58,478 nt of DNA, from the IMG/VR virus record IMGVR_UViG_3300021170_000022, positions 1 through 58,478 of that record, one strand, 5' to 3'. Shown here piece by piece: positions 23,908-55,373 of this stretch; position 1 is the first letter of the stretch; every line of letters begins with the position of its first letter. The stretch is from a virus (Duplodnaviria; Caudoviricetes). The notes under the pieces are model-generated. The model did not search any database. It was given only the letters and a program-made list of their open reading frames with translations, and had not been told where the DNA came from. The position numbers were made by a program, and so were the translations under genes.

Positions 23908-26900
23908 GTCCTGACCGTCACTCCAAGATCCTGCCCAGGTGTCGTCATTCCAACCTGCGTGACGATGAAATCGATCCAGCCTCCCTCGGCGAACACTGCA
24001 AAATTGCCATGATCGATGACTGGCGGTGCACCGCCGGCAGCAAGCTGTAATTGGCCGTTGGCATCGAAAGGGTCGACCACAACCGGGAGCACATTCGGCG
24101 GCCAGTCTCGGCCAATGCCAGCGTAGGGAGCCCAGCCGCCGCTGTGGTAGGGCATATTTCGACCTTCGGGAGGATTGCCGGCTAAGTACGTGTCGAAAGC
24201 GCCATCGCCGAACTTCAATATCTCCAGGAGCCCGGCCGTACTCCTATCCGGAGTGATGTACACGACGTACACGATTACCGTTGCATCACCGCTCAGGCCA
24301 GTCGACGGCGTGGCCAGATCCGCGCTCATCGCGGTAACGCTCTCGGGCGCTCGAACCTGAATCCGCTTGTCCGCGACCGTGCCGACACGGCTCCCGCCGG
24401 CTCCAGCAGTCAGCGGCACACCCAGTGCTCCGAGATTGTATTGGGCGCCGTTCAGTAGCCGAAGCCCCGGAGCCGGTGGCGCATCCGTCGCACGCGACAA
24501 ATTCAGGGTGTACAGCGGACCGATGCCATTCGATCCAATTGCCTGTGCCGTGACCGCAAGCGGCATGCGATTGGCAAATGCCCACTCATAGACGGCCGGC
24601 ACGCCAGTAGCTCCGCTATTCGGAGTCGCTTCGGAGAGTGCGCGCGCGGATGTGGCCCTGAAGAATGTGCCGAAGCTCGCCTTCATCGTGCTGCCAAATT
24701 GAGCTTGGCTGGTAGGCACCCCGCCACCGGGATTGCGCTGAACGGTCAGAGCCCCATCGTCCCCAACGGCTATGATTAGATCAATTTCATAATTCGTGTC
24801 GTTCCAGACGATATAGTCGCCAACACCGAAGCCTTTTCCCAGCCTGCTGCTTCCGCCATAGCTCGGCACAAAGGTGTAGGGATCGGTGACATCGTCGATC
24901 GCTCCAATTCCCCACCACCCCGAGTCGCTCTCGTCCACCACAGGAGCCTCGAACTGCACCTGCTTGACCGCCCCGATTGTCGAAATCTCAGTGACCTGAA
25001 GATCATTGATCGTCAGCGTCGCATATCCCTCGCGCACTACTGTGAACGGAGTCCCGCTGAGCGCAGCCTGGCTGCCGAAGACAAAGACCATCCGGAACGG
25101 CCCATCGCCATCCTCGGACTCCTCACCCGTGACGTCGATCAAAAATGCCGCCAGAAAAATGGACTGCTGCGCGAAATCGCTAATCGGCAGCAGCACTGTC
25201 ATATCCTGGAATGGACTCGCCGTATCGATCTTGGTCGAATCGATCACATAAGGCCAGCCGGCTTCTACAATGATCCACACCGAATCCGGCCCGATCGTGA
25301 TCGGCGAATCCAGGATGTGCGTCGTTCCTGTGTTGGCGATGATGTTCGCCTTAGCCCCCCGCGAGGTTCCTTTGATCACTCGCAGCACCATGCCGCGCTC
25401 CAGATCCGGCGTTAGCCCGCTGTGCGGCGTTGGCGTTCGCGTATTGAAATCGTAATTGAGCGCATTGCTCCAGCCGGAATCGGTGATCCGGTAGGGATCC
25501 GCCGAGTTGTTATAGCCGAGAGTCGAAACCACGAAGACGTCCCCCGGCAGCACGATTCCATCCGCAACACGATCCAGCCCGAACGTTCCCGTGCTCGGGT
25601 CATACGAAAGGATGTTCGCGGCCCAGAACGGAATACTCGATAGCGGCAAATTAGCGTTGTCCCGGCCAATAATGATGAGCTGCCGCCCAACCCAGTTATC
25701 CTCGCCGGTCGGATCCCCAGCCTCCTTCGAGACCACGGAGCTACCGACCACGCTGTCGACCGCAGCACCGATGACACCTAGGTGGTAGCCGATGGTCGCC
25801 TTCAGCCGGATCGTCCGCAGATTCGGATTCGGTGCCGCATACGTCGACCGCAGCAGCGCCCCATCCGGAGGCGAGGACGGCGGCGACGCAACGAAGCCCA
25901 GCAGCGTGATCGTTCCCGGGTTGTATCCTCCAACCGGAGATGTAGGCGTCAGTGCTCCGGTCTGCTGGGCCCCCATCACATCCACTAGAAAATAAGCGTA
26001 GATTGTGAAATTGACCAAGCCGGGGAAGTTCGGCCAGGTTACATCCAGCTGCACCGAATTGATCGCGGCCGGCGGAGAAGACTGCGGAATCTCCACCGGA
26101 AATACTGCCGATGGCAACGTGTAATTTCCGTTCCCGTCGTCCGCCGTGACGCTGACATACAGGATGATCCCGCCCTGGATCGCACCGCCGGTTGGAACGA
26201 CTCTCGCCGCCGTGATGATCGGCGCCGGACATCCATCGATGACCTCATTGACCGGCTCGACTCCCGTAACATTCAGCCGCGGAAGCGCCCCGCCATCCGC
26301 CAGCGTGACCTGCGCACCGATCAGGTTCGAATACCCGAGCGCCACGTCAAAGGTGTGCTCCAGCGGATACATCGCGTCGTCCGCTGCCGCCTGAACCTCG
26401 TATGGCTGCCACTGCGGTGGAATCGGGAGCGGGGTATAGTTCAGGCTCACCCAGATCGACGGCACGCCAGCGCGATTCACCGAACGCAGCTCGAGCACGT
26501 ATTGCGTACCAGGGAGAAGCACCGGCAGCGGCATCTGCGTGACGCTGTCATCCACCGTCCCTAGTGAGATCCAGATCCCCGGCGGGCTCGCGATCAGTTG
26601 ATAGCGGCCCTGGATCGTCGTGACATAGGGATCCAGCGGCGCCGTCCAGGCTAGCGCCGTCCCGCCGCTGTCGTCGAAAATGACGTGCAAATTCGTCGGA
26701 GGGTCCGGCGTGAAGACCGTGTTCGGCAGCCCAGGATACTGGAATCCCTGCGGACTCAGCTCCTCAATGATCTCCCAGTCATAGACCGACGGATCCGTTT
26801 CCTGAACATCGATCTCGACCCCCAGCAGCACGATCTGTGCGCCGGCATCGTTCTGCTTTTCCAGTTTGAACCGTGATGCCAGCACCTCGAGCAGTTTGTC

Positions 26901-28634
26901 GTCCCAGCCGAAATAGGCCAGCGAAACCGCGAGGATGTCCAGCGGCGCAATCTGGTAGCCCACCATATTGAGCAGGAACGTGCCCGTGCCCTGCTGCCGG
27001 CGCCTCAGCAGCTCGATCTTGGCAAGCCTTTGCGCGGCCGCACAAGAAATTGTGAATGGAAGCTGAATATCCAGCCACCGGCGATCGCCACCGTCGTTCG
27101 CCAGGTTCTGGTCGTAGTCGTACTGCGGCGGACCATCATTATAGCCGTGCTCGGAGTCCTGCGCATACCGCGGAAAGTCGCTCGATTGCCAGTTGTTCGC
27201 CGGAGAAATATAGGTGCCCTTGACTCCATTGAAAAGCTCAGCGATCGTAACCGACGATCTCCACCGGATCGGCCCCGCCGCATTACTCGGGATCCAGTTG
27301 GCCGCCAGCGTAAGCGAAACTCCCGGCCAGATCGCCGGATAAATCACGATCGGAAAAATGTCCGGAACAATTCTTCCGCCGCACGACGTCAAGAGATTCT
27401 GTAGGATCTCGCCGCGCTTCATGGTCAGGTTGAAATGACCGCAGCAGGTATATCGCGGCTCGGTCGTCAGCGGCGAAGTCAGCGGCGAGGCCAGACCAAC
27501 TGGCTCATCACAGACATTGGCCGCGGCGATCAGCCCGGGAATCGAGACATCCGTTCCCAGAACATACTTGAATCCCCACGTCTGCTGCGTCAGGTAATCC
27601 GCAATGCACAGCGCGGCATTTTCGGTGTATCCGACGGTCGGCGGCGAGGTCCTCGGATCGACGATGTCGTTCTTGCCGCGGAGCAGAAAACTGATCTGCG
27701 GGATCCCGCCCGGGAAAATCTGCGAATCATACTCTAGCCGGATATGCACCGCCGTGAACCCCACCAGCGAGCAGAAGTTCGTCCAGGGATTCGGATTGTG
27801 CTGATTGTTCTGGACCAGCGTTCCGGTGTCGCCTTGTTTCGGCGTCCCGTTTGTCATGCCGACGAAAGTCTCACCGACCGTCTGTTGATGCCCCAGCCGG
27901 TTGTATGGCCCGGAATCTCCGATGCTCTCCAGGTAAACGTTCTTTTTGTAGTCCGCCCATGTCGTCTGGACCTGACCGGAATTGACGATGACACCCGGCG
28001 GGATCGGCGCTCCACCGGCAAGGAAATAGAAATCTATGCTGCCCGGCGTTCCTGGAACGTGACGAATGATCGTTACGGGGAATTTTCCGTTGATGCCCAA
28101 GCTCACCGGATGCACACCCGAAACGATCACCTGATCGCCATCGGAGAGCAACGGAATGTCGTGATTCAAATGGATGGTGACAACGTCGCCGATGCGCGTA
28201 ATATCGCTCGGATGGTCGATGAGAACAGTCTGCTGCAGCGGAGTGAAGCTGGTATTATTCGCCCCGATCTGGACGCGCTGATTGTCGAACAGCAGCTCGT
28301 CGACGCTTTGGCAGGAATGCGCCGCCAGCACGATGACCATGTCCAGCCATTTGTTGCTGTCTCCAAACTCCGCAAGGTAGACGATCGTTCCGCCGATGCG
28401 CGTGCGGCCGTAACAGACATCCCACGGCGCGATCGGATTGCGTGTAGTGGTCGCGAACCCCTGGACGGGCCCCTTAGCTAGCATCGTGCCGATGCCGCTG
28501 AGCACCAGGCCGGCGCCGGCGGTGATCAGCATCGCCGTAAGCGGCGTCGAGGCGCCAAACGTGACCACCTCGAGCACAATACCCGTGGCGATCAGCGCTG
28601 CGCCGGCAACCGTTTCTATGATGCCCTTAGACAC
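23904..28634 (-). CDS. tail tip / host-specificity protein (J-like) with Fn3-like domain
   Basis: YGRTRIGG, NAALCIADYL, AANVCDE, FNGVKGTY, AQRLAKIEL, PDPPTNL...WTAP...Y.LELRSVN. Confidence 0.88.
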   Translation of the reverse strand: MSKGIIETVAGAALIATGIVLEVVTFGASTPLTAMLITAGAGLVLSGIGTMLAKGPVQGFATTTRNPIAPWDVCYGRTRIGGTIVYLAEFGDSNKWLDMVIVLAAHSCQSVDELLFDNQRVQIGANNTSFTPLQQTVLIDHPSDITRIGDVVTIHLNHDIPLLSDGDQVIVSGVHPVSLGINGKFPVTIIRHVPGTPGSIDFYFLAGGAPIPPGVIVNSGQVQTTWADYKKNVYLESIGDSGPYNRLGHQQTVGETFVGMTNGTPKQGDTGTLVQNNQHNPNPWTNFCSLVGFTAVHIRLEYDSQIFPGGIPQISFLLRGKNDIVDPRTSPPTVGYTENAALCIADYLTQQTWGFKYVLGTDVSIPGLIAAANVCDEPVGLASPLTSPLTTEPRYTCCGHFNLTMKRGEILQNLLTSCGGRIVPDIFPIVIYPAIWPGVSLTLAANWIPSNAAGPIRWRSSVTIAELFNGVKGTYISPANNWQSSDFPRYAQDSEHGYNDGPPQYDYDQNLANDGGDRRWLDIQLPFTISCAAAQRLAKIELLRRRQQGTGTFLLNMVGYQIAPLDILAVSLAYFGWDDKLLEVLASRFKLEKQNDAGAQIVLLGVEIDVQETDPSVYDWEIIEELSPQGFQYPGLPNTVFTPDPPTNLHVIFDDSGGTALAWTAPLDPYVTTIQGRYQLIASPPGIWISLGTVDDSVTQMPLPVLLPGTQYVLELRSVNRAGVPSIWVSLNYTPLPIPPQWQPYEVQAAADDAMYPLEHTFDVALGYSNLIGAQVTLADGGALPRLNVTGVEPVNEVIDGCPAPIITAARVVPTGGAIQGGIILYVSVTADDGNGNYTLPSAVFPVEIPQSSPPAAINSVQLDVTWPNFPGLVNFTIYAYFLVDVMGAQQTGALTPTSPVGGYNPGTITLLGFVASPPSSPPDGALLRSTYAAPNPNLRTIRLKATIGYHLGVIGAAVDSVVGSSVVSKEAGDPTGEDNWVGRQLIIIGRDNANLPLSSIPFWAANILSYDPSTGTFGLDRVADGIVLPGDVFVVSTLGYNNSADPYRITDSGWSNALNYDFNTRTPTPHSGLTPDLERGMVLRVIKGTSRGAKANIIANTGTTHILDSPITIGPDSVWIIVEAGWPYVIDSTKIDTASPFQDMTVLLPISDFAQQSIFLAAFLIDVTGEESEDGDGPFRMVFVFGSQAALSGTPFTVVREGYATLTINDLQVTEISTIGAVKQVQFEAPVVDESDSGWWGIGAIDDVTDPYTFVPSYGGSSRLGKGFGVGDYIVWNDTNYEIDLIIAVGDDGALTVQRNPGGGVPTSQAQFGSTMKASFGTFFRATSARALSEATPNSGATGVPAVYEWAFANRMPLAVTAQAIGSNGIGPLYTLNLSRATDAPPAPGLRLLNGAQYNLGALGVPLTAGAGGSRVGTVADKRIQVRAPESVTAMSADLATPSTGLSGDATVIVYVVYITPDRSTAGLLEILKFGDGAFDTYLAGNPPEGRNMPYHSGGWAPYAGIGRDWPPNVLPVVVDPFDANGQLQLAAGGAPPVIDHGNFAVFAEGGWIDFIVTQVGMTTPGQDLGVTVRT

Positions 28635-29084: not shown

Positions 29085-29085
29085 T

Positions 29086-31071: not shown

Positions 31072-31482
31072 TTAGACCGGTAAGATGAAATATTCCGCGT
31101 CGACTTCGCTGTTCGGCGGGGACGCCGTGCTCACCGCGACCATCGCCGGCACCGTGACGCCCGCCGGAAGTTCCATCAGAATGCAACGTCCGGAGCTGCA
31201 TCGCCCCAGCACCGTGCCGCTAACCGCGGAAAGAAGCTCGATCACGTCCGTCGCAGGCCCATTATTCTTGATCAAAATCTCGCCCAACACCGTTGGCGGC
31301 GACGTCAACAGCGGCCCAAGTGGTATCGCTAGCCCAGCACCCCCAACAGGAACCTGCATCGTGGCGAGCTGGTAGTCCTTACCAGCAGTCTGAAATCCCG
31401 CCGCCGCGATCGCCAGCGACTTGGTGGCGATATTGTTTTTCGTGAACTGCAGCAGTACATTGATAGTGCCGTTGTTCGCCAT
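31072..31482 (-). CDS. putative virion protein
   Basis: Beta-rich, tail module, two SPP motifs. Confidence 0.65.
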   Translation of the reverse strand: MANNGTINVLLQFTKNNIATKSLAIAAAGFQTAGKDYQLATMQVPVGGAGLAIPLGPLLTSPPTVLGEILIKNNGPATDVIELLSAVSGTVLGRCSSGRCILMELPAGVTVPAMVAVSTASPPNSEVDAEYFILPV

Positions 31483-31497: not shown

Positions 31498-31905
31498 CTA
31501 GATGGCTTCGCGAATCTCGAAGCTGATGCCGTACAGCCGAGAGTCATTGATCGACCACTTCCGCGTGTTCGACTTTAGCCGCCAGTAACGCGGCTGCGGT
31601 GGACTCGTTCCCGCCGTGATGCTTTCCGGATACTTTGCCGCGAACGCCGAGGTGAACTGGAATACATTCGCGATGCCCTGCAACGCGCGTAGAAATGCAA
31701 GCCATTCCTGAGCATCCGTGTCGGTCATCGGCGGCATATACACCATCGCCTCCATGTACGTCGCGCCCCACTGGTAGACCTGCATCTGCCCGGTGAACGG
31801 CGAGACGTTGCCCGAGACGATATCGACTACTGAAAACTCGATCGACGCCGGCGCCGGCGGCGTTCCCGGAATCGTGATCACATTCCAACCGTTGTAAAGC
31901 GGCAC
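31498..31905 (-). CDS. distal tail protein
   Basis: Follows the tape measure; SPFTGQ.Q, WLAFL..LQG, YGISF...EA. Confidence 0.75.
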   Translation of the reverse strand: MPLYNGWNVITIPGTPPAPASIEFSVVDIVSGNVSPFTGQMQVYQWGATYMEAMVYMPPMTDTDAQEWLAFLRALQGIANVFQFTSAFAAKYPESITAGTSPPQPRYWRLKSNTRKWSINDSRLYGISFEIREAI

Positions 31906-36813: not shown

Positions 36814-37278
36814 TTAAGTGACGACTTCGGTGAACACACCAGTCATCTGAATTTCGGCGGAAAACTCATTCGCTTTGTCGTTTTCGAACGGACCGGGCTT
36901 ATACGCGGCCATGAATCCGTTCGTGGTCATCGTGTACGTCTTGGTGTTGCGCTGGACCGGAGCCACAATCCTGAACGGGAAGATCGTCTGGGCCTTCGCA
37001 AGAGTCGCGATGTTCAGCTGGGTAGCGTCGGCAATCAGGTTTCCACTGAACGCGACCTTACCCGGCTTGATCATGCCCGGTACAAATTCCCGCGTGTTGC
37101 CCGGCGAGAGCAAGTGCGTGTTATCCACTTCGGGCATCGAAATCAAGTCCGCCGAGAACTGCTTGATTTCGGCGATCGTAGTGTAGTTCGGAGGGCTCGC
37201 GAAATCCCCGAGCTGGAAGATCGCAAGGTAGCCCGTGTTCGCCTGGCTGGCAACCGTGGCCGGAGGTGTAAAAGGCAT
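36814..37278 (-). CDS. major tail tube protein
   Basis: GDFASPPNYTTIAEI, VDNTHLLSPG..REFVPG...PG; strong AAGGAG RBS. Confidence 0.88.
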   Translation of the reverse strand: MPFTPPATVASQANTGYLAIFQLGDFASPPNYTTIAEIKQFSADLISMPEVDNTHLLSPGNTREFVPGMIKPGKVAFSGNLIADATQLNIATLAKAQTIFPFRIVAPVQRNTKTYTMTTNGFMAAYKPGPFENDKANEFSAEIQMTGVFTEVVT

Positions 37279-37338: not shown

Positions 37339-37734
37339 TCAACTCTGCGCGAACAGAATTTCGTATTCCAGCATGCGGCGGTAACTCCGCCTCGCATCAT
37401 CGAAGAAATCCATTACGTCCGTCGATAAACAGCTGCTCACGAACGTGGCGTCCGGATCCGGCAGCCGCCCCGCATATCCGTTCAGCACCGCATCGATCTC
37501 CGCGCCCAGCGTGATCGCCTCAGCGGCCGTCGTCCCATAACAGTCGATCTGCAGCCGGCGCCTATTCAGGCCCTTCGAGCTTGTGAGCGTCGTATCCGAC
37601 GTCTGACCGGCCGATAGATAAGTCCAACTCGGCAATGGCTGATCCTTGGGCAGCTCCACAAAAAATCCGCCGATCGTCGACGGCGGACTACTGAGGCCGG
37701 CATTGACCAACTTGACGATCCCCAACTCAAGCAC
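37339..37734 (-). CDS. tail terminator (DUF3168 / HK97 gp11-like)
   Basis: LP..TY, RLQIDCYG, VLNGY. Confidence 0.82.
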   Translation of the reverse strand: MLELGIVKLVNAGLSSPPSTIGGFFVELPKDQPLPSWTYLSAGQTSDTTLTSSKGLNRRRLQIDCYGTTAAEAITLGAEIDAVLNGYAGRLPDPDATFVSSCLSTDVMDFFDDARRSYRRMLEYEILFAQS

Positions 37735-38425
37735 TCGGAGCCCACCAGTCCCACAGCGCCGAATCTTCCGGTCCGTAATTGGCCCAAGGCCGCTGCTCGC
37801 CGCCAGCAATATACTTTCGCGACAAACCTGCCCATGGCTCCATCGGGAGCCGGTCCAGCAGAAAAACGTTCAGCGGAGGACAGATCCACCCCTTCTTGAC
37901 TTCCGGATGCGCCAGCTGCCAATCGGTGAACCCGCCGTAGGTCGAATGCGGCCGCATTGGATCCCGGCCGGCAAATGCGCTCCGCCGCATCAGGCCAACG
38001 CCGCCAATCGAGTCCGCCTCGGCGTACGTCCCGTGCCGTCTCGAAAGGTCCAGCCTCACCGTGCTCGACGGCGGCTCGATCCCCAGTAGTCCCAGCTCTG
38101 GATGCGCCTCCATCACATCAAGACAGCGCTCCAGCCACCCGGGCGGAACGATGACATCATTGTCGATCTTGGCGAAAATCGGGGAACCTCCGTTCCTTAG
38201 AAAATCGTTCATAACAGCCACCGGGCCGCCAAACGGTTCGTAAAAGAAGTACGTCTCCGACGGAGACTTCAACACAAATCGCGCGCCAGGCTCATTTCGA
38301 GAACCGCCGTCAAAATACACATGCACGCTCTTGACAGAGCCCCAGTCCGTGTTGGAGAGAAGTGCCCCCGCGCTCGCCTCGGTGAACTCCGATCGACCCT
38401 TCGCCAGATAGAGAATGTCGATCAC
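37727..38425 (-). CDS. GT-A fold glycosyltransferase (GT2-like)
   Basis: FDGGS, AKIDNDVIVPPGWL DxD motif, IGGVGLMRR. Confidence 0.82.
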   Translation of the reverse strand: MIDILYLAKGRSEFTEASAGALLSNTDWGSVKSVHVYFDGGSRNEPGARFVLKSPSETYFFYEPFGGPVAVMNDFLRNGGSPIFAKIDNDVIVPPGWLERCLDVMEAHPELGLLGIEPPSSTVRLDLSRRHGTYAEADSIGGVGLMRRSAFAGRDPMRPHSTYGGFTDWQLAHPEVKKGWICPPLNVFLLDRLPMEPWAGLSRKYIAGGEQRPWANYGPEDSALWDWWAPSA

Positions 38426-39829: not shown

Positions 39830-39922
39830 ATCATCACTCACAGTTCGGATCGTCCCAGATGACCAGGATCGGCGTGCCATCTGTTCCCGCCAGAATCGAA
39901 GCCAATGCGAATAGGATCGTCC

Positions 39923-40615: not shown

Positions 40616-40620
40616 TGCGT

Positions 40621-41010: not shown

Positions 41011-41078
41011 GTGCTCAAAGCCGCCCTTTCCCATTGCCCCGTCGCTGTATGGGACCCATCCACGCGCAGGCATAGCCT

Positions 41079-41528
41079 TCAAAGCCCGCGCTCGCGCAAC
41101 CACTGATCCCATGCCAGGTCCTGGCGCAGTGTCAGAATCGCAGCAGGCGAGAAGCAATAACTCAACAAAAACACCTTGAAATCGCAGAAATCTCCGATCA
41201 CGAACTGACCCACGGTACCGTGATCGATGCCAAGTGCTGGGCCGTGATCCGCCAGCGCGTAATTAACAGTCGCCCGGCCTAGATCGGTCGTGGTCACCGC
41301 CTGTACAATGCACACTTCTCCAGCGTCCTGATAGGTCGAGTGGAAGAGGGCGACGACGGTGTCCGTGTTGACCTGACTGACCGGGTGAATCTGAGTCCCG
41401 CCGTTCATATTCGCCGGCCAGATGTTCAGCTGAGCCGCATTTCGAATCTGCGAAGGGCGGACGCGCGTCTGAGCAGAGCAAATCGTCGCGAACAGCACGA
41501 ACAAAATGGTTTTCAGGGAGCTTGCCAT
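41079..41528 (-). CDS. secreted protein, paralogue A
   Basis: ...TICSA|QTRVRPSQIRN ... AWDQWLRERGL. Confidence 0.7.
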   Translation of the reverse strand: MASSLKTILFVLFATICSAQTRVRPSQIRNAAQLNIWPANMNGGTQIHPVSQVNTDTVVALFHSTYQDAGEVCIVQAVTTTDLGRATVNYALADHGPALGIDHGTVGQFVIGDFCDFKVFLLSYCFSPAAILTLRQDLAWDQWLRERGL

Positions 41529-42238
41529 ATAGTACTCCACATATTCGGAGAGGAACATAACTTAACAGCCTTAATTGTATTGCCGACCGTCGTTTCGTAC
41601 ATCTCACCGAATGCGCATGTCGGCGGATCGCCAACAGCGAATTTAGCCGGAATCGTCTTGGCTGCGTTGCTGGCGTCCTCGCTGCCAGTATAGGCGTTAT
41701 ACCCTCCCAAATCAGGCACGGTTGCTGAATCGCGAGAGATTAAGCACGGGCCGAGCGTGCAATCGACAATGATCCCATTCCCGGCCATCATTGCATTCTG
41801 CGAGAACACCGAACGCTTATCGGCAACCGCCGTGAATTGACCGTCGACAATCGTCAGATCGGCAACCGGAAACGCCGTATCCGGCACACTCGGATTGATT
41901 ACCGCCTGAGCTGTGATGCTGATATTGGTCGTATCGAAGTTCAGCGTGAAGGCGTTTGGATACTCCAACACTAGAGCGCACGAATCAGCGATATACAGCT
42001 TACCGACCATCGGACCTGAAGAGCCGGATAGCAAGCGAGCTAAAGAAGTGGAAGTGAAGTTATCGCAGACGCGCGTTAGAAACCTCACGCGACCAGCCGC
42101 TACGGTAAGCAAGCCTCCATGGATGGTGGGAGTGAAATCGAGGACCTGCACTCCCGCCAGCCTGGTTTGCCCGAAGCTGAAAGTCAGCGCCAGTCCCAGG
42201 AGCAACCCGCAAAGCAATCCCGCAATCGACTTATTCAT
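41513..42238 (-). CDS. putative virion appendage protein with signal peptide
   Basis: ...FSFG|QTRL; PVADLT...DKRS; six mature Cys. Confidence 0.7.
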   Translation of the reverse strand: MNKSIAGLLCGLLLGLALTFSFGQTRLAGVQVLDFTPTIHGGLLTVAAGRVRFLTRVCDNFTSTSLARLLSGSSGPMVGKLYIADSCALVLEYPNAFTLNFDTTNISITAQAVINPSVPDTAFPVADLTIVDGQFTAVADKRSVFSQNAMMAGNGIIVDCTLGPCLISRDSATVPDLGGYNAYTGSEDASNAAKTIPAKFAVGDPPTCAFGEMYETTVGNTIKAVKLCSSPNMWSTIWQAP

Positions 42239-42241
42239 AGG

Positions 42242-42769
42242 TCACTTTCTATAGCGGCAACTGAAGGTGTCACCAGGCTGTGGCACAGTTGCCGTGCTGA
42301 CAAACGTCATCACATTCGCTGACGTTCCAGTTCCAAGGGAGAAATCTACCGGCAACGCTGTTCCGATGACCGCCGTCAACATCAGACCGTTGCGAATGCA
42401 TTCCAAACTCGTGGACGGATTCGGCGCGTCCGGGAGATTGAAGACCAAGTTCACGCCGTCTTGTGTTCCTGATGGGACAACAGGACCCACGAACGTCGGC
42501 CCGGTATTTCCGCTGTTCACGTGCAGAGTGATCGGCGCCGTCTGCGTAGCGGCCGTGATCGTGAACTGCGACGAATCGAGAGCGACGCATCCGAGAAGTA
42601 CGAACACTCCGAACTGAGTCGAGAAGGACACTCCGATGGTCGCCGGAATCTGGATCAATCCGTTGGCGATCGCAGGCACGGGACATTTGATTTGCCCCGC
42701 TGAAATAGCGGTCGGCTGAGCCGCTACAGCCGCCGCGCAAAACAGAGTTGCGAGCAGGATCGATTTCAC
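42242..42769 (-). CDS. putative virion appendage protein with signal peptide
   Basis: ...AVAA|Q; PSGTQDGVNLVF.L..APNPSTSL...RNG domain; four mature Cys. Confidence 0.72.
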   Translation of the reverse strand: MKSILLATLFCAAAVAAQPTAISAGQIKCPVPAIANGLIQIPATIGVSFSTQFGVFVLLGCVALDSSQFTITAATQTAPITLHVNSGNTGPTFVGPVVPSGTQDGVNLVFNLPDAPNPSTSLECIRNGLMLTAVIGTALPVDFSLGTGTSANVMTFVSTATVPQPGDTFSCRYRK

Positions 42770-43275
42770 TTTCGGTACTCCCCTGTCGTGATTACCGCTC
42801 CCACTTGAGGCTGCGATCCGCTGATGAATGTGATCACGCCTCCGCCGGCACTACTCGCGGCGACTGTATATTGTGCACCCTGTCTTTGATAGATGCCATT
42901 CACATAGAGCGAAAGGCTTGTCGATGGATTTGGGGCAGCAGATATAGTGAAGATCAGATTCACGCCGTCGATCGTGCCGCCAGGAGTCTCCGGTGGAGAG
43001 AAATTCAGCGGCGTACTCGATCCACCGATTACGCGCAAGGTAGGCGGCTTCGTGGAAGGATCGATCTTGAATCCTATAGGGTCAAACTGCACGCAGGCGA
43101 ATCCAAGCCCAGTTCCCAGCGATGAGCTAACCGGCACCACGACAAAGACGTAGGCCGGGACGCCCGGAGGCACAGCAGTCGGACAGGAGTTGAGCTGCCA
43201 CGGCTGCACCTGGGCATAAATGGAGGCCGATGCCAGCAGCAGAACGATGAGCAGGAAAACGTTTTTAGCTTTCAT
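42766..43275 (-). CDS. putative virion appendage protein with signal peptide (paralogue of the previous gene)
   Basis: ...SIYA|Q; PGGTIDGVNLIF...APNPSTSL.LYVNG; two Cys. Confidence 0.72.
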   Translation of the reverse strand: MKAKNVFLLIVLLLASASIYAQVQPWQLNSCPTAVPPGVPAYVFVVVPVSSSLGTGLGFACVQFDPIGFKIDPSTKPPTLRVIGGSSTPLNFSPPETPGGTIDGVNLIFTISAAPNPSTSLSLYVNGIYQRQGAQYTVAASSAGGGVITFISGSQPQVGAVITTGEYRK

Positions 43276-43298
43276 AGTTCTAAATCTCCTTTTCGCGA

Positions 43299-44081
43299 TC
43301 ACAGCAAGTCACTGAATAATCGGCGAGCCCGATCGGCAGGAATCTGCTGCCGGCGGCTACGGCCTCGAAATAATGGATCCATCGCGCTGCCCAGATTCAC
43401 GTAGGTCCGTTCGGGAAAACGTTCCCAGCACTGAATCGCCGGAATATTCCCCGCCATGCCGGCGCCATACAGCAGCACGTCGAAGTCGCGAGTTATCAGT
43501 TCATCGGTAAGGGCGCCGGTGTGCGCCAATAGATTTTCCATTGGCGTTTCGATAAATTCCGCACCGAGCATCCTCGCTGCGCCAGCGTTTCCAGCCGGGC
43601 CCATGAACATCTTCCGCCGCGGATCTTCCTTGACAGCCCGATAGAAATCGACCAGAGCAGCCGACTCTCTCATCAGCAGCAACGCCTCGAAGTGCAGCCA
43701 GGTCGGATCCGCATCGCCCACCAGCTCGGCGTAGTCTTCTGCGTAGCGCGAATGCTCCGACAGCGAATCGAATGAAGCCGAAAGCCAGTCGCCAACAAAT
43801 GTGTTCGGACCATTCACCACGCTTTCCCAACACCGCCGCAGCTCTGCGCCGAGGAAATCGGAGTAAGCCTCGCGATCGCACGTCTGCCCGCGCTTTCCGC
43901 GAATGCACTCCAACGCGCCATCTCCATAGCGAACAAAGAAGAATGGATCCCGCGCGCGGATCTCAGCTGCCAGGATCGTCGCACTTGTATCCGCGTTGAC
44001 GGTCGCGTATCGCGCCGGCGCACTATTTTTGGGAATTATATACTTGACTCCCGCACGGGAGTAATCTACAATGGTTGACAT
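43299..44081 (-). CDS. GT-D-like (DUF1792-like) glycosyltransferase; 5' end altered by the IS
   Basis: PFFFVRYGDG, LYGAGMAG, NLGSAMDP. Confidence 0.68.
   Translation of the reverse strand: MSTIVDYSRAGVKYIIPKNSAPARYATVNADTSATILAAEIRARDPFFFVRYGDGALECIRGKRGQTCDREAYSDFLGAELRRCWESVVNGPNTFVGDWLSASFDSLSEHSRYAEDYAELVGDADPTWLHFEALLLMRESAALVDFYRAVKEDPRRKMFMGPAGNAGAARMLGAEFIETPMENLLAHTGALTDELITRDFDVLLYGAGMAGNIPAIQCWERFPERTYVNLGSAMDPLFRGRSRRQQIPADRARRLFSDLL
44044..44072 (+). promoter_or_regulatory. IS promoter with palindromic spacer
   Basis: TTGACT-N17-TACAAT; ACTCCCG-CA-CGGGAGT inverted repeat over the spacer; ATG 8 nt downstream suggests a leaderless mRNA. Confidence 0.7.
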
Positions 44082-44451
44082 GAAAACAACTCCTTCCGTT
44101 CACACCACACCGGGTCCGTGGGAAGTTCGCACTGGACAGAGAACTACTTTCATCGTTCAACCGCATCAGTTCATCGAATCCGGCGTCTATGTTGCTGAAG
44201 TTTCGCCTCAAGCTGCTGGCGCTGATGGACGGCCAATCCCCGAACAAAGAGCCGCCGATGCTCGAATGATTTCCGCCACGCCCGATCTGGCTAAAGCGCT
44301 TCGCGATCTTTACATCTGCTTTGGAGATCGCGAAGGTGAATCCGAATGGTGGGAAGAATGGGCGGATATTCCAGGAATTGACACGTGCGAGGTCCGTAGG
44401 ATTTGCCTCGATAAAGCTCGCGCTGCGCTTGAAAAAGCAGGGGTGTGCTGA
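44080..44451 (+). CDS. IS passenger hypothetical protein
   Basis: HTTPGPW ... ADARMISATPDL..AL motif common in small phage proteins. Confidence 0.75.
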   Translation: MKTTPSVHTTPGPWEVRTGQRTTFIVQPHQFIESGVYVAEVSPQAAGADGRPIPEQRAADARMISATPDLAKALRDLYICFGDREGESEWWEEWADIPGIDTCEVRRICLDKARAALEKAGVC

Positions 44452-45378
44452 ATGTCTCGCTCTACAATCAGCACCTTTAAACTCTTCGAACTGTTCCCCG
44501 ACGCCGAGTCCGCGCGAACCTATCTCGAAGGCAGGCTGTGGCCCAATGGACTGGCCTGCCCCGAGTGCAAAACCTCGGATCGGATTACGACGCGCAAGGC
44601 CGGTTTCTACCGCTGCAACGCCTGCGGGGATTTCGATTTTACCGTCCGAACCGGAACGATTTTCGAGCGGTCGCACATCCCGCTTAATAAGTGGGTCTAT
44701 GCCATGTATCTGCTCGTCACTGCTCGCAAGGGAATCTCTTCGATGCAGTTGGCTAAGGAGATCGGCGTTACCCAAAAGTCCGCTTGGTTCATGCTTTCCC
44801 GCCTGCGTGAGGCTTGCGGCGATGATTCGGGCATCGATAAGTTGCGCGGGACGGTCGAGGTTGACGAGTGCTTTGTGGGTGGCAAGGAAGCCAACAAACA
44901 CGAATCCAAGAAACTGCACGCCGGTCGCGGCTCCGTCGGTAAGGTTGCGGTTTTGGGGCTTAGGGAGCGCGGCGGACGGACACGGGCAAAGATCATTGCC
45001 GACCGCACCATTCAGACGATCCAAGGTGAGATTCATGCAGGCGTCGAAGTCGGCGCTCAACTTTACACCGATGAGCACGTTGCCTATACAGATCTGGACG
45101 GACTGTTCTTTCGCCATGACACCGTGAACCACTCGGCAGGCGAGTACAAGCGTGGCGCGGCGCACACGAACGGCATCGAGTCCGTATGGGCGGTCCTGAA
45201 GCGTGGGCTTCACGGCGTCTATCACCACGCCAGCCCGAAACACCTTGGACGCTACGTTGATGAGTTCACCTTTAGGCTGAACGAGGGGAACGTCGGGCGA
45301 CACACACTGGAACGCCTTGACTCGTTCGTGGACCGGGTGTCCGGCAAGCGGCTGACTTACGCTAGGTTGACCGCATGA
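44452..45378 (+). CDS. IS1595-family transposase
   Basis: CPEC...CNAC zinc ribbon, HTH, VEVDECFVGG, YTDE, VNH, HTNGIESVW. Confidence 0.96.
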   Translation: MSRSTISTFKLFELFPDAESARTYLEGRLWPNGLACPECKTSDRITTRKAGFYRCNACGDFDFTVRTGTIFERSHIPLNKWVYAMYLLVTARKGISSMQLAKEIGVTQKSAWFMLSRLREACGDDSGIDKLRGTVEVDECFVGGKEANKHESKKLHAGRGSVGKVAVLGLRERGGRTRAKIIADRTIQTIQGEIHAGVEVGAQLYTDEHVAYTDLDGLFFRHDTVNHSAGEYKRGAAHTNGIESVWAVLKRGLHGVYHHASPKHLGRYVDEFTFRLNEGNVGRHTLERLDSFVDRVSGKRLTYARLTA

Positions 45379-45542
45379 AGCGCAAGCGGACCAATCGCTT
45401 GACATTGGAGCAACGGTTGGCGAGGGCGCGTCAAATCGCCGAGGATAACGCCAAGCGCCGATGCCCCGATTGCGGGCGTCTATGCCGGTGGACAGCCGGA
45501 AACTACGGAATGCGTGCTCAATGTGAGCACTGCGGAGGCTAA
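45375..45542 (+). CDS. IS passenger zinc-ribbon protein (55 aa)
   Basis: Manual translation; CPDC ... CEHC; ATGA overlap with the transposase stop. Confidence 0.6.
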   Translation: MKRKRTNRLTLEQRLARARQIAEDNAKRRCPDCGRLCRWTAGNYGMRAQCEHCGG

Positions 45543-45671
45543 ATGAACAAACCTGTTCCTCCCGAACTGGACCGGATAACCGACAAGGTTTTGGCATACA
45601 AGCCGAAGCCAAAGACGAAGGCCGCGAAGCGGCGCAAGCGAAAGAGGCAACGCGATGCAAAGAAAGGTTAA
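45543..45671 (+). CDS. IS passenger basic peptide (42 aa)
   Basis: MNKPVPPELDRITDKVLAYKPKPKTKAAKRRKRKR...; stop abuts IRR. Confidence 0.6.
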   Translation: MNKPVPPELDRITDKVLAYKPKPKTKAAKRRKRKRQRDAKKG

Positions 45672-45694
45672 CGGGAGTCATGTATATAAATCCC

Positions 45695-46246
45695 CTATTT
45701 TTGAGCAACACAGCCATATCCAAGCGGGAAATTGAAAACGCCCAGCGAAACACGAGCGCGCGGTTCGTGGACAATGACCGAAAACCCAAAGTCACGCAGT
45801 AAGCGCTCCATGCCGGCCTTCGTGAACCGCCATAGATCGGAATCTTCGACCTCGTCCCAGTTCGTGACATAGGTCAGGATCAGGTGGCCACCGGGACGCA
45901 ACCACGCAGCAAAGCCGCGGAGCAGCTCTGGCACGTGTTCGATGTACTGCAGCACCTGGTTGCACATGATCGCGTCCAGCGGCCCCATCGCGGGACTGCC
46001 GTTTAGCCCGTCCCCGATTTCGAACGGAATATACTGGCCGCCCTGCACGAGATCGCTGTATGGCATCTTTCCGCAGCCAAAATCCAACACGCGGCCCTGC
46101 AGATACCGCCGATGCTTTTCCATGAACTGGCGGATACTCGCCCGCTCGATCTGCCTGACCTGGTCGAACCCGGCGAAGTCCCGATCCAGATCGCACTGAC
46201 TCGCGCCGTCAAGCTCCGGCGCCCGCAGGTACCGCAAGCTGATCAC
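45695..46246 (-). CDS. class I SAM-dependent methyltransferase
   Basis: VLDFGCGKMPY, DAIMCNQVLQY, LRPGG. Confidence 0.9.
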   Translation of the reverse strand: MISLRYLRAPELDGASQCDLDRDFAGFDQVRQIERASIRQFMEKHRRYLQGRVLDFGCGKMPYSDLVQGGQYIPFEIGDGLNGSPAMGPLDAIMCNQVLQYIEHVPELLRGFAAWLRPGGHLILTYVTNWDEVEDSDLWRFTKAGMERLLRDFGFSVIVHEPRARVSLGVFNFPLGYGCVAQK

Positions 46247-46839
46247 GCCAGCTTCCTCCACACGCCGACCAGCGTCCTACACGGAAACCCATCCAAATCC
46301 TGATCCAGAATCACGCGACGCTCTTCGAACAAATTCGTATAAGAAAGATGCTTGTCCAGCTTCTCTTCCGTCAGCGAATGATCGTGGATCAGGTTGAGCA
46401 GCTCCGGAGGCCTCAGATTGACATGGAGATAAAACCTCCCGCCTGGCTTAAGCAATCGCGCCACCTTTAGCACGACGTAAAAGTCCATCTCGCCATGATC
46501 CAGCGCATTGGTCGTCAAGATCGCATCGAACGTCTCGTTTGTGTCCCAGCGTTCGAAGCATTCGTCGACCTGGCGGATGTCGCCCCGGTCCTCGAGGATG
46601 CCGGCCGCATGATATACCGGGAACAATGGATCGACCGCAAACTTAAGATGGGCGTCTAGATATGGCAACAATCCCCAATGCGGGCCCGTACCGATCTCCA
46701 GAATCTGCGCGTGGCCCCTCGGCACCGTGATCCCGAGCGCCTCCAGATACTGCTTGAGCTGCGCTCGCTCATCGCCCATATCGGCACGAAGCCAATGCTT
46801 CAGCTCGAGCAGATCCTTGTGCGTGAGCGTGAGGCTCAT
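46243..46839 (-). CDS. class I SAM-dependent methyltransferase
   Basis: ILEIGTGP, AVDPL, FDAILTTNALDH, LLKPGG. Confidence 0.9.
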   Translation of the reverse strand: MSLTLTHKDLLELKHWLRADMGDERAQLKQYLEALGITVPRGHAQILEIGTGPHWGLLPYLDAHLKFAVDPLFPVYHAAGILEDRGDIRQVDECFERWDTNETFDAILTTNALDHGEMDFYVVLKVARLLKPGGRFYLHVNLRPPELLNLIHDHSLTEEKLDKHLSYTNLFEERRVILDQDLDGFPCRTLVGVWRKLA

Positions 46840-47345
46840 TTCACAGCCTCCAGGATCACCATAATTTTATGGCGTTCAGGAGCGTCCGGCGCATACTGGA
46901 TCGGCGTCCAGTTTTTTCCGCTTCGCCCGCCAACGGTTCGGAACAATGCCGTGACCCCCATCCCCGGCCCTAGGCGTCCGCGCTCCCCTCCTCGGTGGTT
47001 CCACTCTTCACAAAAGTAATAACGGGTGTCCGCCGTCCATACCGAAACATGTGTCGGATCGACCCAGGGAGCAACCCCGGGAAGGCACGGAACGTACAGG
47101 TCGAGCTTCCCGCCTGGCCGCAGCACCCTATGCGCTTCATTCAGGCACCAGATGATCCCTTTGTTGCCAGGGAATTCGGCGTTGTCCAGGTGTTCGAACA
47201 CATCATGCGCAAAAATCTCGTTGGCGCTCGAATCCCCCCAGGGCCACGGCTTTCGCAGATCCGCAATCACATCCGCCGGCGCTACGCGGTCGACGTTCAC
47301 ATAGCCGGGCCTATGATCGTCCGAACATCCGAGATTCAGCTTCAT
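46836..47345 (-). CDS. class I SAM-dependent methyltransferase
   Basis: KLNLGCS, YVNVD, HDVFEHL, RVLRPGG, DPTH. Confidence 0.9.
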   Translation of the reverse strand: MKLNLGCSDDHRPGYVNVDRVAPADVIADLRKPWPWGDSSANEIFAHDVFEHLDNAEFPGNKGIIWCLNEAHRVLRPGGKLDLYVPCLPGVAPWVDPTHVSVWTADTRYYFCEEWNHRGGERGRLGPGMGVTALFRTVGGRSGKNWTPIQYAPDAPERHKIMVILEAVK

Positions 47346-48022
47346 GCCCCCGCGCTCCATGCGTACCCCGGGACTCCAGCAAACCCGGGAACTTTCTGCC
47401 AAGGACCGCCCGAGGTCCGCCGCGGGCTATTGTTCCCGGGATGAATCGTCGCCACCATCAGATCGCCGGCGTCAGCGCTGGCCAGCTGCCCGGCGTTCGC
47501 CGCTTCATTGCTGAACAAAACGTCCGAACCGACCTGCATCGCCGAAAACCGGTGCTTCTCCCACCAATCCCGCCGGAAGCACAGCGATGTCCCCATGGCG
47601 AACGTTGGCGGACCTGGATATTTCCACCAGTCGCGCCCGTCGGTAAACATCATCGTGTGGTAACCGGTCACCGCCTTGCCGCTTTCCTGCAGCCGCTGGA
47701 CCTGGTCCGCCACGCGGCCGGGAGCGCTATAGTCGTCGTCGTCCCACTTGCACACGATCTCCGTCTTCGAAAGCTCGCAGCACAGATTGAACTTCTCCCC
47801 ACTGGTCCGCGGCCGCTCGGGATCCCGAAGCGTGCACAGCGAAATCCGCAGATCGTCTTTCGGGATCAGATCCCCCACTTCTTCTCCGTCCGCGATGATC
47901 AGCATTCTCAAATCCGCGTAGGTCTGCGCCTGAAAGCACGCGATCGCCTTCGGCAGCCACCGCCGCCGATTTCGCGTCGGACAGAAGCACGTGACGCTCG
48001 GATTCGCGTTCATCTCATCCAT
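47342..48022 (-). CDS. family 2 glycosyltransferase
   Basis: PTRNR..WL.KAI.CF..QTY, IIADG, KWDDDD. Confidence 0.9.
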   Translation of the reverse strand: MDEMNANPSVTCFCPTRNRRRWLPKAIACFQAQTYADLRMLIIADGEEVGDLIPKDDLRISLCTLRDPERPRTSGEKFNLCCELSKTEIVCKWDDDDYSAPGRVADQVQRLQESGKAVTGYHTMMFTDGRDWWKYPGPPTFAMGTSLCFRRDWWEKHRFSAMQVGSDVLFSNEAANAGQLASADAGDLMVATIHPGNNSPRRTSGGPWQKVPGFAGVPGYAWSAGA

Positions 48023-48028
48023 CCGCGG

Positions 48029-48397
48029 CTAATCATTCGAACCCAGTGCCATGCATGTCAATTCCATCCACCGATTCCGCTCGAGAACATTCTGTACCGC
48101 CCGAATTACATACTGGCTGCCGTTGGGCGCCTGAATGCGACGATTGGCGAGCACATCGCTGCGATATCGAAGGGTGATCATAATCATGACCTGCGAAATA
48201 TCTTGACCAGCTTTGATAACATCGATTCCGCGGAATGGAGCAATTTCAGCCCGCGCCGTCTCCGGCGGAGACGAAGCCACCCAATCCACCTCGGCGCCGG
48301 CGTTGGCTATGCTCGTGACCGGATTCAAAAAAGTAATCAGATGACGCAGCCTGCCTGGATCCATCACCGGCTCGCCGTTGACGATTTTGACCGGCAT
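48029..48397 (-). CDS. head closure protein (SPP1 gp16-like)
   Basis: PGRLRHLIT, ITLRYR.DV, Y.I.AV. Confidence 0.85.
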   Translation of the reverse strand: MPVKIVNGEPVMDPGRLRHLITFLNPVTSIANAGAEVDWVASSPPETARAEIAPFRGIDVIKAGQDISQVMIMITLRYRSDVLANRRIQAPNGSQYVIRAVQNVLERNRWMELTCMALGSND

Positions 48398-49290
48398 CAG
48401 AATCTAAAATCGCGCACGGGCGCTAAAACAGCCTTGACCTGCGCGGGAATATCGTTCTCATCGGCCATGCGGATATCGAACCAGCGATTCACCAACATCT
48501 TGATGCCAGACTTGATCAATCCCCAATGCGCTGGATTTCCGCTAGGCGCATTTACTAGAAGCGCTGTTTGATTCGAATAGCCCTGCGCTGCCGGATCACG
48601 CAGGATAGCGTTTGAGTCCGGCGGGGAACTGATTGATGCGATCACCGTATTCAGCGTTCTTCCGCTTGGCCCCGCAGCCGGGATCGAGATAGGGCGCCCG
48701 ACGTCCGCTGCGGCGAACATATATGCATTCGCCGTCACCGCGCTAAGGTTCGGTGGCGAGCCTCCCGCCGAAACGACCACCGGCATCGCATATCCCATCG
48801 TGAAATCCACTTGGATCGCATTCACCACCACCCGCGCTACTGGCCACATCCTTCCGAAGGGAGGCGTCAAACGAGCCGGGTTCGATTGCAGATCCGCCGT
48901 GAAATCCGTCGCCGGATTCATCACAGTGACGTTTCCGTTAGCATCCAGATATTGGAACAAGACGAGGCTCCGCACGGGAGGGTAGGGCAATACGATCGCA
49001 TATCGAATGCCCACCAGAACCGCATTCGAGCCGCTCACGAACGGACTCGAAACCTTCTGCCCCGCGAGCTTCAGGTCGATGTATCCGGGAAAAAAATCCA
49101 TCAGCAGGCGCCACGTTTGCTGCACGAAGCGCCTGCTGGTATAGGTTTCCGCCCAAGCGCGCGCGGCCATTTCCAACGCAAGAATTACGTCGTCTTGCGA
49201 AGTATCGCCGGCATCCACCTGCAGGAAGTCCTTAAGCTCTGCAAGCGATACCGGCTCGACGACCGGCGGGTTGAGCAGGATCAAGGCCAT
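48397..49290 (-). CDS. head-tail connector (gp6-like) with insertions
   Basis: PPVVEPVSLAELKDFL.VD, AETYT.R.FV.QTW, PPV, K.GI.MLV..WF..R. Confidence 0.87.
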   Translation of the reverse strand: MALILLNPPVVEPVSLAELKDFLQVDAGDTSQDDVILALEMAARAWAETYTSRRFVQQTWRLLMDFFPGYIDLKLAGQKVSSPFVSGSNAVLVGIRYAIVLPYPPVRSLVLFQYLDANGNVTVMNPATDFTADLQSNPARLTPPFGRMWPVARVVVNAIQVDFTMGYAMPVVVSAGGSPPNLSAVTANAYMFAAADVGRPISIPAAGPSGRTLNTVIASISSPPDSNAILRDPAAQGYSNQTALLVNAPSGNPAHWGLIKSGIKMLVNRWFDIRMADENDIPAQVKAVLAPVRDFRF

Positions 49291-52698: not shown

Positions 52699-52714
52699 CC
52701 ACCTCCCGCGCGAT

Positions 52715-53149: not shown

Positions 53150-53156
53150 GTTATTT

Positions 53157-54981: not shown

Positions 54982-55043
54982 CGATTTAAGCCCGTTTTGT
55001 CTCCGCCGGAGACAAATTCAATTCCGGGCAGATTTTTAGATTT

Positions 55044-55373
55044 TTAGGCGACCGCGACACCGTTCAGGGGGCCGGTATACCAATTTCCGTTGCGCGAGAT
55101 CAATTCCACGGCGCTTCCCTTCGTCCCATTGAACGTGAGCGTAGAATTCGAGCCGCCGTTTAGGCCAGCCGTAGGAGGGGAGCCGTTCGGTGCGATCGTG
55201 ATCACATGCGCGTGACCCGTCTCATCGATAAATCGAAGTATCTGTCCGTCCACGGTCGGAAGCGCAAGCGTCAAAGCTAGTGCGCCAGCTGCGTTGATGT
55301 GATTTAGCTCGGCGGGCGTGATCGCGCCGGCTAGCGTGATGACGTTCGGAGCTCTATTCGGAACACTCGACAT
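55044..55373 (-). CDS. putative head decoration protein
   Basis: GAIT, ALALTLALP, AH.IT, TF.G..G..VEL...NG.WY; strong AAGGAG RBS. Confidence 0.65.
   Translation of the reverse strand: MSSVPNRAPNVITLAGAITPAELNHINAAGALALTLALPTVDGQILRFIDETGHAHVITIAPNGSPPTAGLNGGSNSTLTFNGTKGSAVELISRNGNWYTGPLNGVAVA

Follow-up and report, generated by a model that had tools for sequence, protein, structure and literature searches.

A Ser-Pro-Pro motif in the virion proteins of an Acidobacteriota siphophage as a candidate sequon of a phage-encoded glycosylation cassette

The IMG/VR virus record IMGVR_UViG_3300021170_000022 (58,478 bp, 58% G+C, rated 75% complete; the whole record was analysed and is hereafter called the window) is an Acidobacteriota siphophage record in which the tripeptide Ser-Pro-Pro (SPP) occurs 15 times in minus-strand late open reading frames (ORFs), distributed over nine proteins. 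Between the head closure and tail terminator genes of the same operon lies a cassette of about 10 kb (37727-48022), whose predicted products include glycosyltransferases, methyltransferases and a de-N-acetylase. SPP enrichment recurs in related phages that carry one of these genes, encoding a putative glycosyltransferase of the GT-D fold (GT-D+ phages), and the closest relative, G001, which lacks these 10 kb, is devoid of SPP in its virion module. We propose, with a probability of about 0.6, that the cassette enzymes O-glycosylate virion proteins in the cytoplasm, with SPP as their acceptor motif (sequon).

SPP enrichment in late-operon proteins and in related phages

An earlier note on this sequence had placed 15 SPP sites in nine late proteins, and all of them were recovered at those positions (Table 1). 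Its observation that SPP is missing from the primase, integrase, ParB, terminase, portal, capsid and tape measure proteins of the window was likewise confirmed, as was the preference for A, G, S or T immediately before the motif (14 of the 15 sites). Over all 11,270 residues of the late ORFs, which served as the denominator, 2.36 SPP are expected from independent residue frequencies and 2.6 from per-protein shuffles; the maximum in 3000 such shuffles was 9, and none reached 15. SPP ranks first among all tripeptides of the late ORFs (Poisson p = 3.4e-8, or about 3e-4 after correcting for 8000 tripeptides). Indeed, 15 of the 50 PP dipeptides in these ORFs are preceded by S, and the permuted controls PPS and PSP (3 and 2 occurrences) remain at expectation. 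Early ORFs hold 0-1 SPP (one in a doubtful ORF) against 1.46 expected. Thus, the comparison of structural with non-structural proteins, set beforehand, separates the two groups, and the enrichment survives correction for composition. The previous estimate of about one expected SPP in some 2,800 residues was right as to the enrichment, but its denominator was post hoc and comprised motif-bearing proteins only.

The sites do not represent a DNA repeat, in agreement with what had been claimed from their differing codons. Five Ser codons are used, and the choice of both Ser and Pro codons reflects that of the genes in general, in which CCG accounts for 57% of all Pro codons; the signal is therefore one of protein and not of DNA. 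A repeat or codon artefact at the DNA level was ruled out on the same grounds and because CCNCCG is not limited to one context. A sixteenth SPP (14343-14351, AGC CCC CCC) falls in a doubtful minus-strand ORF of 84 residues (14274-14528), in a region where plus-strand ORFs compete, and is probably not a real protein site.

Relatives were collected by two independent routes. The tail tube route, based on an alignment of 30 of 72 homologues, led to the retrieval of 36 viral, 50 metagenomic and 4 genomic loci, and the GT-D protein route provided 15 loci. Nearly all of the latter carry, inside the virion module, a family 2 glycosyltransferase (GT2), two methyltransferases, GT-D, the 39260 family, PIG-L and the 37727 family. 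GT-D presence was judged by hidden Markov model search, and near-identical contigs were removed before GT-D+ and GT-D-negative phages were pooled. Three loci were kept out of both groups: L009, whose cassette ends at the contig end, and L115 and L116, whose GT-D matches reach only 22-24% identity. In the 10 non-redundant GT-D+ phages besides the window, 49 SPP were found against 11.0 expected, which again makes SPP the first-ranking tripeptide (p = 3.5e-17), and 6 of these 10 phages individually reach p < 0.05. The 33 GT-D-negative relatives hold 54 SPP against 29.8 expected (rank 201), or 32 against 25.1 when four outliers are left aside. L050 and G003, with the same cassette type as the window (type A), have 13 and 7 SPP (1.2 and 1.5 expected). 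In two complete genomes the excess is located in the late region: 21 SPP against 2.9 expected in G006 (elsewhere 3 against 1.8), and 15 against 2.6 in G007 (elsewhere 3 against 3.35). G001, whose tail tube is 74% identical to that of the window, is a complete 60.7 kb genome with terminal repeats in which the head closure gene abuts the terminator gene; no PIG-L, GT-D or PF00535 match was found in this genome. From its terminase through its last tail gene, 0 SPP are encoded; the 6 SPP of this genome all belong to non-virion ORFs, and two ORFs of about 60 residues account for three of them.

A maximum-likelihood tree built from 36 tube proteins requires five changes of state for its five GT-D+ rows, at least four of which are forced by well-supported branches, and each of these rows shows an observed/expected SPP ratio above that of its nearest GT-D-negative neighbour (sign test p = 0.03). 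At the tube site, at least 90% of 30 homologues share S-P. The residue that follows is P in 5/5 GT-D+ phages versus 2/27 unlabelled relatives (Fisher p = 1e-4), the two being L100 and L009, in which the contig end truncates a type A cassette. Two of the four GT-D-negative enriched outliers likewise have P, and elsewhere the residue is L, I, T, V, F, G, D or Y.

The suggestion that SPP sits in inserted loops was upheld by alignment: of the 14 window sites with a G001 homologue, 10 coincide with G001 gaps of at least two residues and three with substitutions. In the model of the tail tube (36814-37278), which shows the lambda gpV/monocin tube fold, the motif lies in a predicted loop (25-31) between two strands; a search of the tube profile against the sequences of solved structures gave 0 matches. 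Enriched phages provided 80 unique SPP sites. At position -1, A, G, S or T accounts for 72% of them (background, 31%), hydrophobic residues occupy positions -6 and -5, and both flanks show a depletion of basic residues; P at +1 was found in 0/80, the motif being never SPPP. SPP density in the enriched set differs among protein classes, with 8.0 per 1000 residues in the decoration candidate (ORF 55044-55373, whose homologue in relatives adjoins the capsid gene), 5.9 in head closure, 5.3 in distal tail, 5.1 in tail tube, 4.9 in adaptor, 2.3 in J-like and 0.8 in capsid proteins, and 0 in tape measure (7043 residues), portal (2934), terminase (2085) and scaffold/protease family (2108) proteins. 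As this set includes four phages picked for enrichment, contrasting these densities with other phages is partly circular, but the partition among classes within the set is not. The SPP enrichment is restricted to virion proteins whose exposure is predicted from loop and indel position.

Gene content of the cassette, its slot and the host

As judged from sequence, the conserved core of the cassette consists of sugar-handling enzymes only. In its seven proteins (Table 1) the maximum 19-residue hydropathy is at most 1.22, which indicates no transmembrane segment in what is a crude scan and not a dedicated predictor. No flippase or oligosaccharyltransferase was seen in the Pfam scan of cassette proteins, and a Pfam scan of 20 proteins from the cassette and its flanks revealed no GT4 (GtfA/GtfB-type) family.

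The GT-D assignment of the protein encoded at 43299-44081 derives from its AlphaFold2 (AF2) model (pLDDT 90.4). The top three PDB matches in Foldseek, 4pfx, 4phr and 5v4a, are solved DUF1792/GT-D glycosyltransferases (E 5e-7 to 1e-5, template modelling score 0.56, probability 1.00), and the next match has an E-value of 0.0096. The protein is only 13-14% identical to these structures, no Pfam family was matched at E <= 0.01, and the family profile retrieved only a weak match to 4pfx (E 0.17) among PDB sequences. Within that weak match, RFGDGE of 4pfx is aligned to R-Y/F-G-D-G-x-x-E, which is invariant in the family; a structure paper of 2014 on GT-D reportedly describes DXE as the metal-binding acidic motif. 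We therefore file the protein as a predicted distant relative of the GT-D fold and not as a DUF1792 member. The family comprises 180 proteins at E <= 0.001, 26 of which were aligned. Five homologues of 394-454 residues (P0128, P0135, P0153, P0155, P0175) are fused to an S-adenosylmethionine (SAM)-dependent methyltransferase domain, and a sixth (P0077, 425 residues, without Pfam annotation) is a fusion by length only; such architectures point to a putative coupling of sugar transfer with methylation.

Outside the conserved core, the insert at 39923-43302 includes two paralogue pairs (39923/40621 and 42242/42766), and ORFs 41513, 42242 and 42766 encode N-terminal hydrophobic segments. The homologue of 42766 in G007 is located after a large tail fibre gene and carries 2 SPP. 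A PHROG match to a 'D5-like regulator' was obtained for 39923-40654.

The slot beside the head closure/adaptor genes holds unlike gene sets in other relatives (L033/L092 at 5630-6478, L063, L006 and L100), one of them consisting of a radical SAM/SPASM protein and a two-domain GT2, and looks like a hotspot for swapping virion-modification cassettes. A gene family common to all enriched phages was sought in single-linkage BLAST clusters and none emerged; the cluster of 43299 was contaminated through the methyltransferase fusions, which pulled in L063. For the type B cassette proteins and a 214-residue ORF of L005, comparison with the sequences of solved structures gave nothing usable, and the Protein Atlas offered viral GT-A-like clusters as leads for two of the type B proteins.

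Nearly every gene of the window is on the minus strand. Family searches identified a primase, an integrase and a ParB-like protein in the early half, and capsid, head-tail adaptor, head closure, tail terminator, tail tube and distal tail proteins in the late operon, which also encodes a J-like tail protein of 1576 residues with an fn3 domain (23904-28634). Megablast of 20 kb of the window against 50,697 phage records retrieved no close annotated phage. The host is most likely an acidobacterium, because homologues are present in contigs of metagenome-assembled genomes (MAGs) of Blastocatellia, Bryobacterales and Pyrinomonadaceae, one homologous locus (L100) being inside a 295 kb Bryobacterales contig. 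The related phage of L100, which has SPP in the tube and at two J-like sites together with a non-GT-D cassette, is probably a prophage, which assigns a host and may open a way to a culturable system.

Other features were observed in the window. A patatin-like phospholipase gene (21286-22161) lies near the holin gene (18425-18997), between the tail genes and the early region, and its product may belong to the lysis module or act as an enzyme on the envelope. The top tripeptides of the early proteins (1-23903) are AFA (16 versus 3.6 expected), DAF (10 versus 1.5) and FAA (14 versus 3.6), which suggests a repeated D-A-F-A-A-like motif in one or more of them. A 137-residue protein of G003 (38422-38835), encoded between the tape measure and distal tail genes, is 69% identical to the product of the early-region ORF 12524-12952 of the window; this small gene has moved between modules.

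Table 1. SPP sites and cassette genes of the window. G001, G002, G003, L050 and L100 are relatives.
Feature	Position	Strand	Protein and remarks
SPP	25866..25874	-	J-like tail protein, residue 921; second of tandem SPPSSPP; segment missing in cassette-free G001
SPP	25878..25886	-	J-like tail protein, residue 917; SPPDSPP at matching place in L050
SPP	26070..26078	-	J-like tail protein, residue 853; 4-residue gap in G001
SPP	26580..26588	-	J-like tail protein, residue 683; ASPPGIWI common to L050 and L100; SPE in G003 and G002
SPP	27639..27647	-	J-like tail protein, residue 330, DPRTSPPT; same site in L050, G002 and G003; DPRSSS in G001
SPP	31114..31122	-	ORF 31072-31482, residue 121; 6-residue gap in G001 homologue
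SPP	31294..31302	-	ORF 31072-31482, residue 61; gap in G001 homologue
SPP	31597..31605	-	Distal tail protein (31498-31905), residue 101; 2-residue gap in G001
SPP	37189..37197	-	Tail tube (36814-37278), residue 28; loop between strands 20-24 and 32-34
SPP	37681..37689	-	Tail terminator (37339-37809), residue 41
SPP	42991..42999	-	ORF 42766-43302, residue 102; sole site preceded by F
SPP	48263..48271	-	Head closure (48029-48397), residue 43; KPP in G001
SPP	48619..48627	-	Head-tail adaptor (48397-49290), residue 222; 2-residue gap in G001
SPP	48751..48759	-	Head-tail adaptor (48397-49290), residue 178; 4-residue gap in G001
SPP	55173..55181	-	ORF 55044-55373 (decoration candidate), residue 65; 6-residue gap in G001
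GT2 (GT-A) glycosyltransferase	47342..48022	-	Directly after head closure; Pfam PF00535, 38.1 bits (cut-off 23.3)
SAM methyltransferase-like protein	46836..47402	-	Weak Pfam Methyltransf_11 match, below cut-off; conserved in type A cassettes
SAM methyltransferase	46243..46839	-	Pfam Methyltransf_23, 27.1 bits (cut-off 27); conserved in 5 other cassettes
Window-specific 615-residue ORF	44023..45870	-	No Pfam, NCBIfam or PHROGs match; no homologue in other loci
GT-D fold (DUF1792-like) glycosyltransferase	43299..44081	-	AF2 model and Foldseek matches
Window-specific insert in cassette	39923..43302	-	Five ORFs, two paralogue pairs; outside conserved core
Conserved cassette protein, possibly GT-A-like	39260..39880	-	Weak NCBIfam AglG match (E 0.0011), far below cut-off; conserved in type A cassettes
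PIG-L/LmbE-type de-N-acetylase	38709..39263	-	Pfam PF02585, 31.7 bits (cut-off 28.2)
Conserved cassette protein, weak GT2 match	37727..38425	-	PF00535, 20.5 bits, below cut-off; conserved in 12 loci

A glycosylation sequon weighed against other explanations

If SPP is a glycosylation sequon, it would usually read [A/G/S/T]-S-P-P-[not P] and open a loop that follows a beta-strand. Soluble cassette enzymes, made in the late operon alongside the virion proteins, would add sugars one by one. One glycosyltransferase, the GT2 encoded at 47342-48022 being the candidate, would place the first sugar on the serine of exposed SPP loops; this would probably be an N-acetylhexosamine (HexNAc), because the cassette encodes a PIG-L deacetylase. 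The GT-D enzyme and other GT-A-like proteins would extend the glycan, PIG-L would de-N-acetylate it and the two methyltransferases would cap it, with the outcome of a glycan coat on tail tube, connector, decoration, distal tail and fibre proteins. A more far-reaching version, to which we give slightly less than an even chance, is that the sequon is portable: a soluble phage GT-A enzyme would read SPP in loops of folded proteins, and phages acquiring the cassette would evolve SPP loops, often as insertions of 2-6 residues, on every outward-facing virion protein, giving rise to a methylated, partly de-N-acetylated coat.

As to the enzyme that reads SPP, we give the GT2 about one chance in three of being the initiator. 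Among type A cassettes SPP goes with GT-D, and L063, which has the other type A core genes without GT-D, holds 1 SPP against 1.15 expected and SPT in the tube. The one family common to type A phages and to L028, L030+L029 and L004, which are enriched without GT-D, is a GT2 resembling 47342-48022. A tree of 33 such proteins contains an 18-row clade (support 97/97) that unites 17 of the 20 unlabelled, non-enriched phages with one of the two copies of L105, and the other 15 rows comprise 12 of the 13 labelled phages together with L100, L102 and L006; 0 of 500 label shuffles clustered as tightly. The second copy of L105 is placed directly after head closure. It is this presence in both cassette types, together with the clustering on the tree, that makes the GT2 following head closure the candidate initiator. 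L006 and L102, which have no SPP, count against this candidate, and L114 does not discriminate. No alternative sequon stood out in the 17 phages of the other GT2 clade, whose top tripeptides resemble conserved single sites or low-complexity runs.

Several findings weigh against the sequon. Among GT-D+ phages, L114 (1 SPP against 1.38 expected) and L107 (0 against 0.76, in a locus with few virion genes) are not enriched, and L103 and L108 are only weakly so (3 SPP against about 1 each), while the GT-D-negative L028, L030+L029, L005 and L004 are enriched, with 7, 7, 5 and 3 sites. In L028, L030+L029 and L004 the same slot is occupied by a different cassette of GT-A-like genes, and the L005 contig stops short of any position at which a cassette could be located. 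In addition, L006 and L102 have a GT2 that does not belong to the 18-row clade and no SPP, and the window major capsid protein is itself free of SPP. The characterised GT-D example elongates and does not initiate, since it is described in excerpts of PMC5063993 as extending the O-glycan of the serine-rich adhesin Fap1. At the tube site, alignment indicates that S-P is conserved in relatives without any cassette, and the site is therefore partly structural, with only its third residue tracking the cassette. Finally, the physical linkage of cassette and virion genes makes some co-inheritance expected, and with about a dozen independent phages lineage or linkage effects may play a part. Thus, the proposal of the earlier note that SPP loops are acceptors of the glycosyltransferase/methyltransferase cassette stands in part. 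The cassette is real, the enrichment recurs in GT-D+ phages and falls to 0 in the G001 virion module, and loop insertions were found, but the link is imperfect, as the co-occurrence breaks down in L107, L114 and the four enriched GT-D-negative phages.

Alternatively, SPP could be read by a factor outside the cassette, such as general O-glycosylation by the host, a proline-directed kinase, a prolyl hydroxylase or a hydroxyproline-linked sugar, with the cassette elaborating or accompanying that modification, or modifying the host envelope or DNA instead. At least two unlike cassettes among the enriched phages would fit a shared host factor, and the initiating enzyme is only a candidate; yet G001, a member of the same phage group and the nearest on the tube tree, has no SPP in its virion module, which speaks against a host-wide pressure. 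Plant extensins carry hydroxylated and glycosylated Ser-Pro-Pro runs, according to excerpts of the literature on these proteins, but no PF13640 prolyl hydroxylase was found in 4/4 enriched records searched, two of them complete genomes, and none of the 80 sites continues with a third P. The location of the cassette in the late virion operon, not in the replication module, also speaks against a reader of this kind, which we regard as unlikely. Envelope conversion by the cassette is unlikely as well, because its enzymes are soluble and belong to the virion operon; neither transmembrane segments in the core enzymes nor a flippase or oligosaccharyltransferase were seen.

A role of SPP in structure or assembly, as a rigid starter of loops that follow a beta-strand, is also rather unlikely; the motif would then belong to one virion-module lineage and travel by position with a cassette that does something else. 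The tube S-P, present whatever the cassette status, agrees with such a role, as do sites common to related phages, for instance DPRTSPP in the J-like protein; however, only the third residue switches at the tube site, and many other sites are non-homologous and located in lineage-specific insertions. Linkage of cassette and targets in one operon would be consistent with it too, but enriched genes lie as far as 10-20 kb from the cassette, and enrichment extends to G007 and L110, whose tail genes gave no BLAST match to the window tube and tail fibre genes. The four enriched phages without GT-D favour a structural motif, against which stand the scatter of GT-D+ phages on the tube tree (5 changes for 5 rows) and the virion module of G001, the closest relative, without SPP.

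Docking of another phage protein on the SPP loops (for example, the three proteins with N-terminal hydrophobic segments or a decoration protein), without covalent modification, is very unlikely. Short Pro-rich motifs often mediate binding and the window has such ORFs in its cassette (41513-43302), one of them with an SPP of its own. However, the claim that these loops might serve exported proteins as docking sites received no support, as the three proteins are window-specific and missing from the other enriched phages, save for the 42766 homologue in G007, and no non-enzymatic gene is common to all enriched phages. Chance or a compositional artefact, conceivable in view of the abundance of Pro and Ser at 58% G+C and of the post hoc denominator mentioned above, is rejected as practically negligible by the first rank of SPP and its p-value, the shuffles, the PPS/PSP controls and replication in independent genomes.

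Relation to known glycosylation systems and significance

Glycosylation of the virion shields mycobacteriophage particles from antibodies; the modified sites are reportedly in C-terminal parts of capsid and tube subunits, and no SPP sequon is said to have been described there. In the mycobacteriophages Che8, Corndog and Myrna, phage glycosyltransferases glycosylate virion proteins, as excerpted from articles citing the original work (Freeman 2023, as cited in PMC12363180, PMC13445384, PMC12582341). The glycosyltransferase genes described here are similarly phage-borne with virion proteins as putative targets, and O-glycosylation in the Che8/Corndog/Myrna system takes place, according to the same excerpts, in the cytoplasm of the infected cell. 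Unlike in mycobacteriophages, the host phylum is Acidobacteriota and not Actinomycetota, the cassette lies inside the head-tail joining module and combines GT-D, PIG-L and methyltransferases, and many putative targets are marked by a three-residue motif in internal loops. We predict that the principle is the same and that the phylum, the enzyme set and an explicit, evolvable three-residue motif are new.

In the Fap1/serine-rich repeat protein (SRRP) pathway, the O-glycan is built directly on protein serines, and its first sugar, N-acetylglucosamine, would fit the PIG-L enzyme of the cassette. That pathway (GtfA/B, Gtf3 and dGT1 with a DUF1792 GT-D domain) resembles the cassette in being a series of soluble glycosyltransferases with a GT-D fold member, as depicted in excerpts of PMC5063993. 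In contrast, no GT4 GtfA/B pair was found among the cassette proteins scanned with Pfam, and the acceptors would be isolated SPP loops in folded virion proteins instead of long Ser-rich repeats.

Bacterial O-glycosylation sequons, such as D-(S/T)-(A/I/L/V/M/T) in Bacteroidota or the recognition motifs of PglL, are likewise short linear Ser/Thr motifs that mark many unrelated proteins. However, these systems move lipid-linked glycans en bloc in the periplasm by means of membrane oligosaccharyltransferases, whereas the cassette enzymes are predicted to be soluble and their targets assemble in the cytoplasm. The Ser-Hyp4 glycomodules of plant extensins (Hyp, hydroxyproline), as far as excerpts describe them, also consist of a serine followed by prolines, but extensins need SPPPP and prolyl hydroxylation, neither the third proline (0/80 sites) nor PF13640 (4/4 records) being present here. 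No description of an SPP sequon in phages was found in the main texts of the full-text literature searched, where the only matches for Ser-Pro-Pro glycosylation concerned plant extensins.

Acidobacteriota are a dominant but poorly studied soil phylum. In uncultured phages of this group, genome sequence alone indicates which residues would be modified, on which proteins and with which gene block, and a three-residue motif that appears and disappears with a gene cassette constitutes a directly testable hypothesis. If true, the finding would provide a rule for predicting glycosylated phage surfaces from sequence, and SPP would be a genomic signature of which of these surfaces are sugar-coated. 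It would also offer a compact tool for site-directed glycosylation in the bacterial cytoplasm, SPP and the cassette forming a minimal, transplantable glyco-tagging system.

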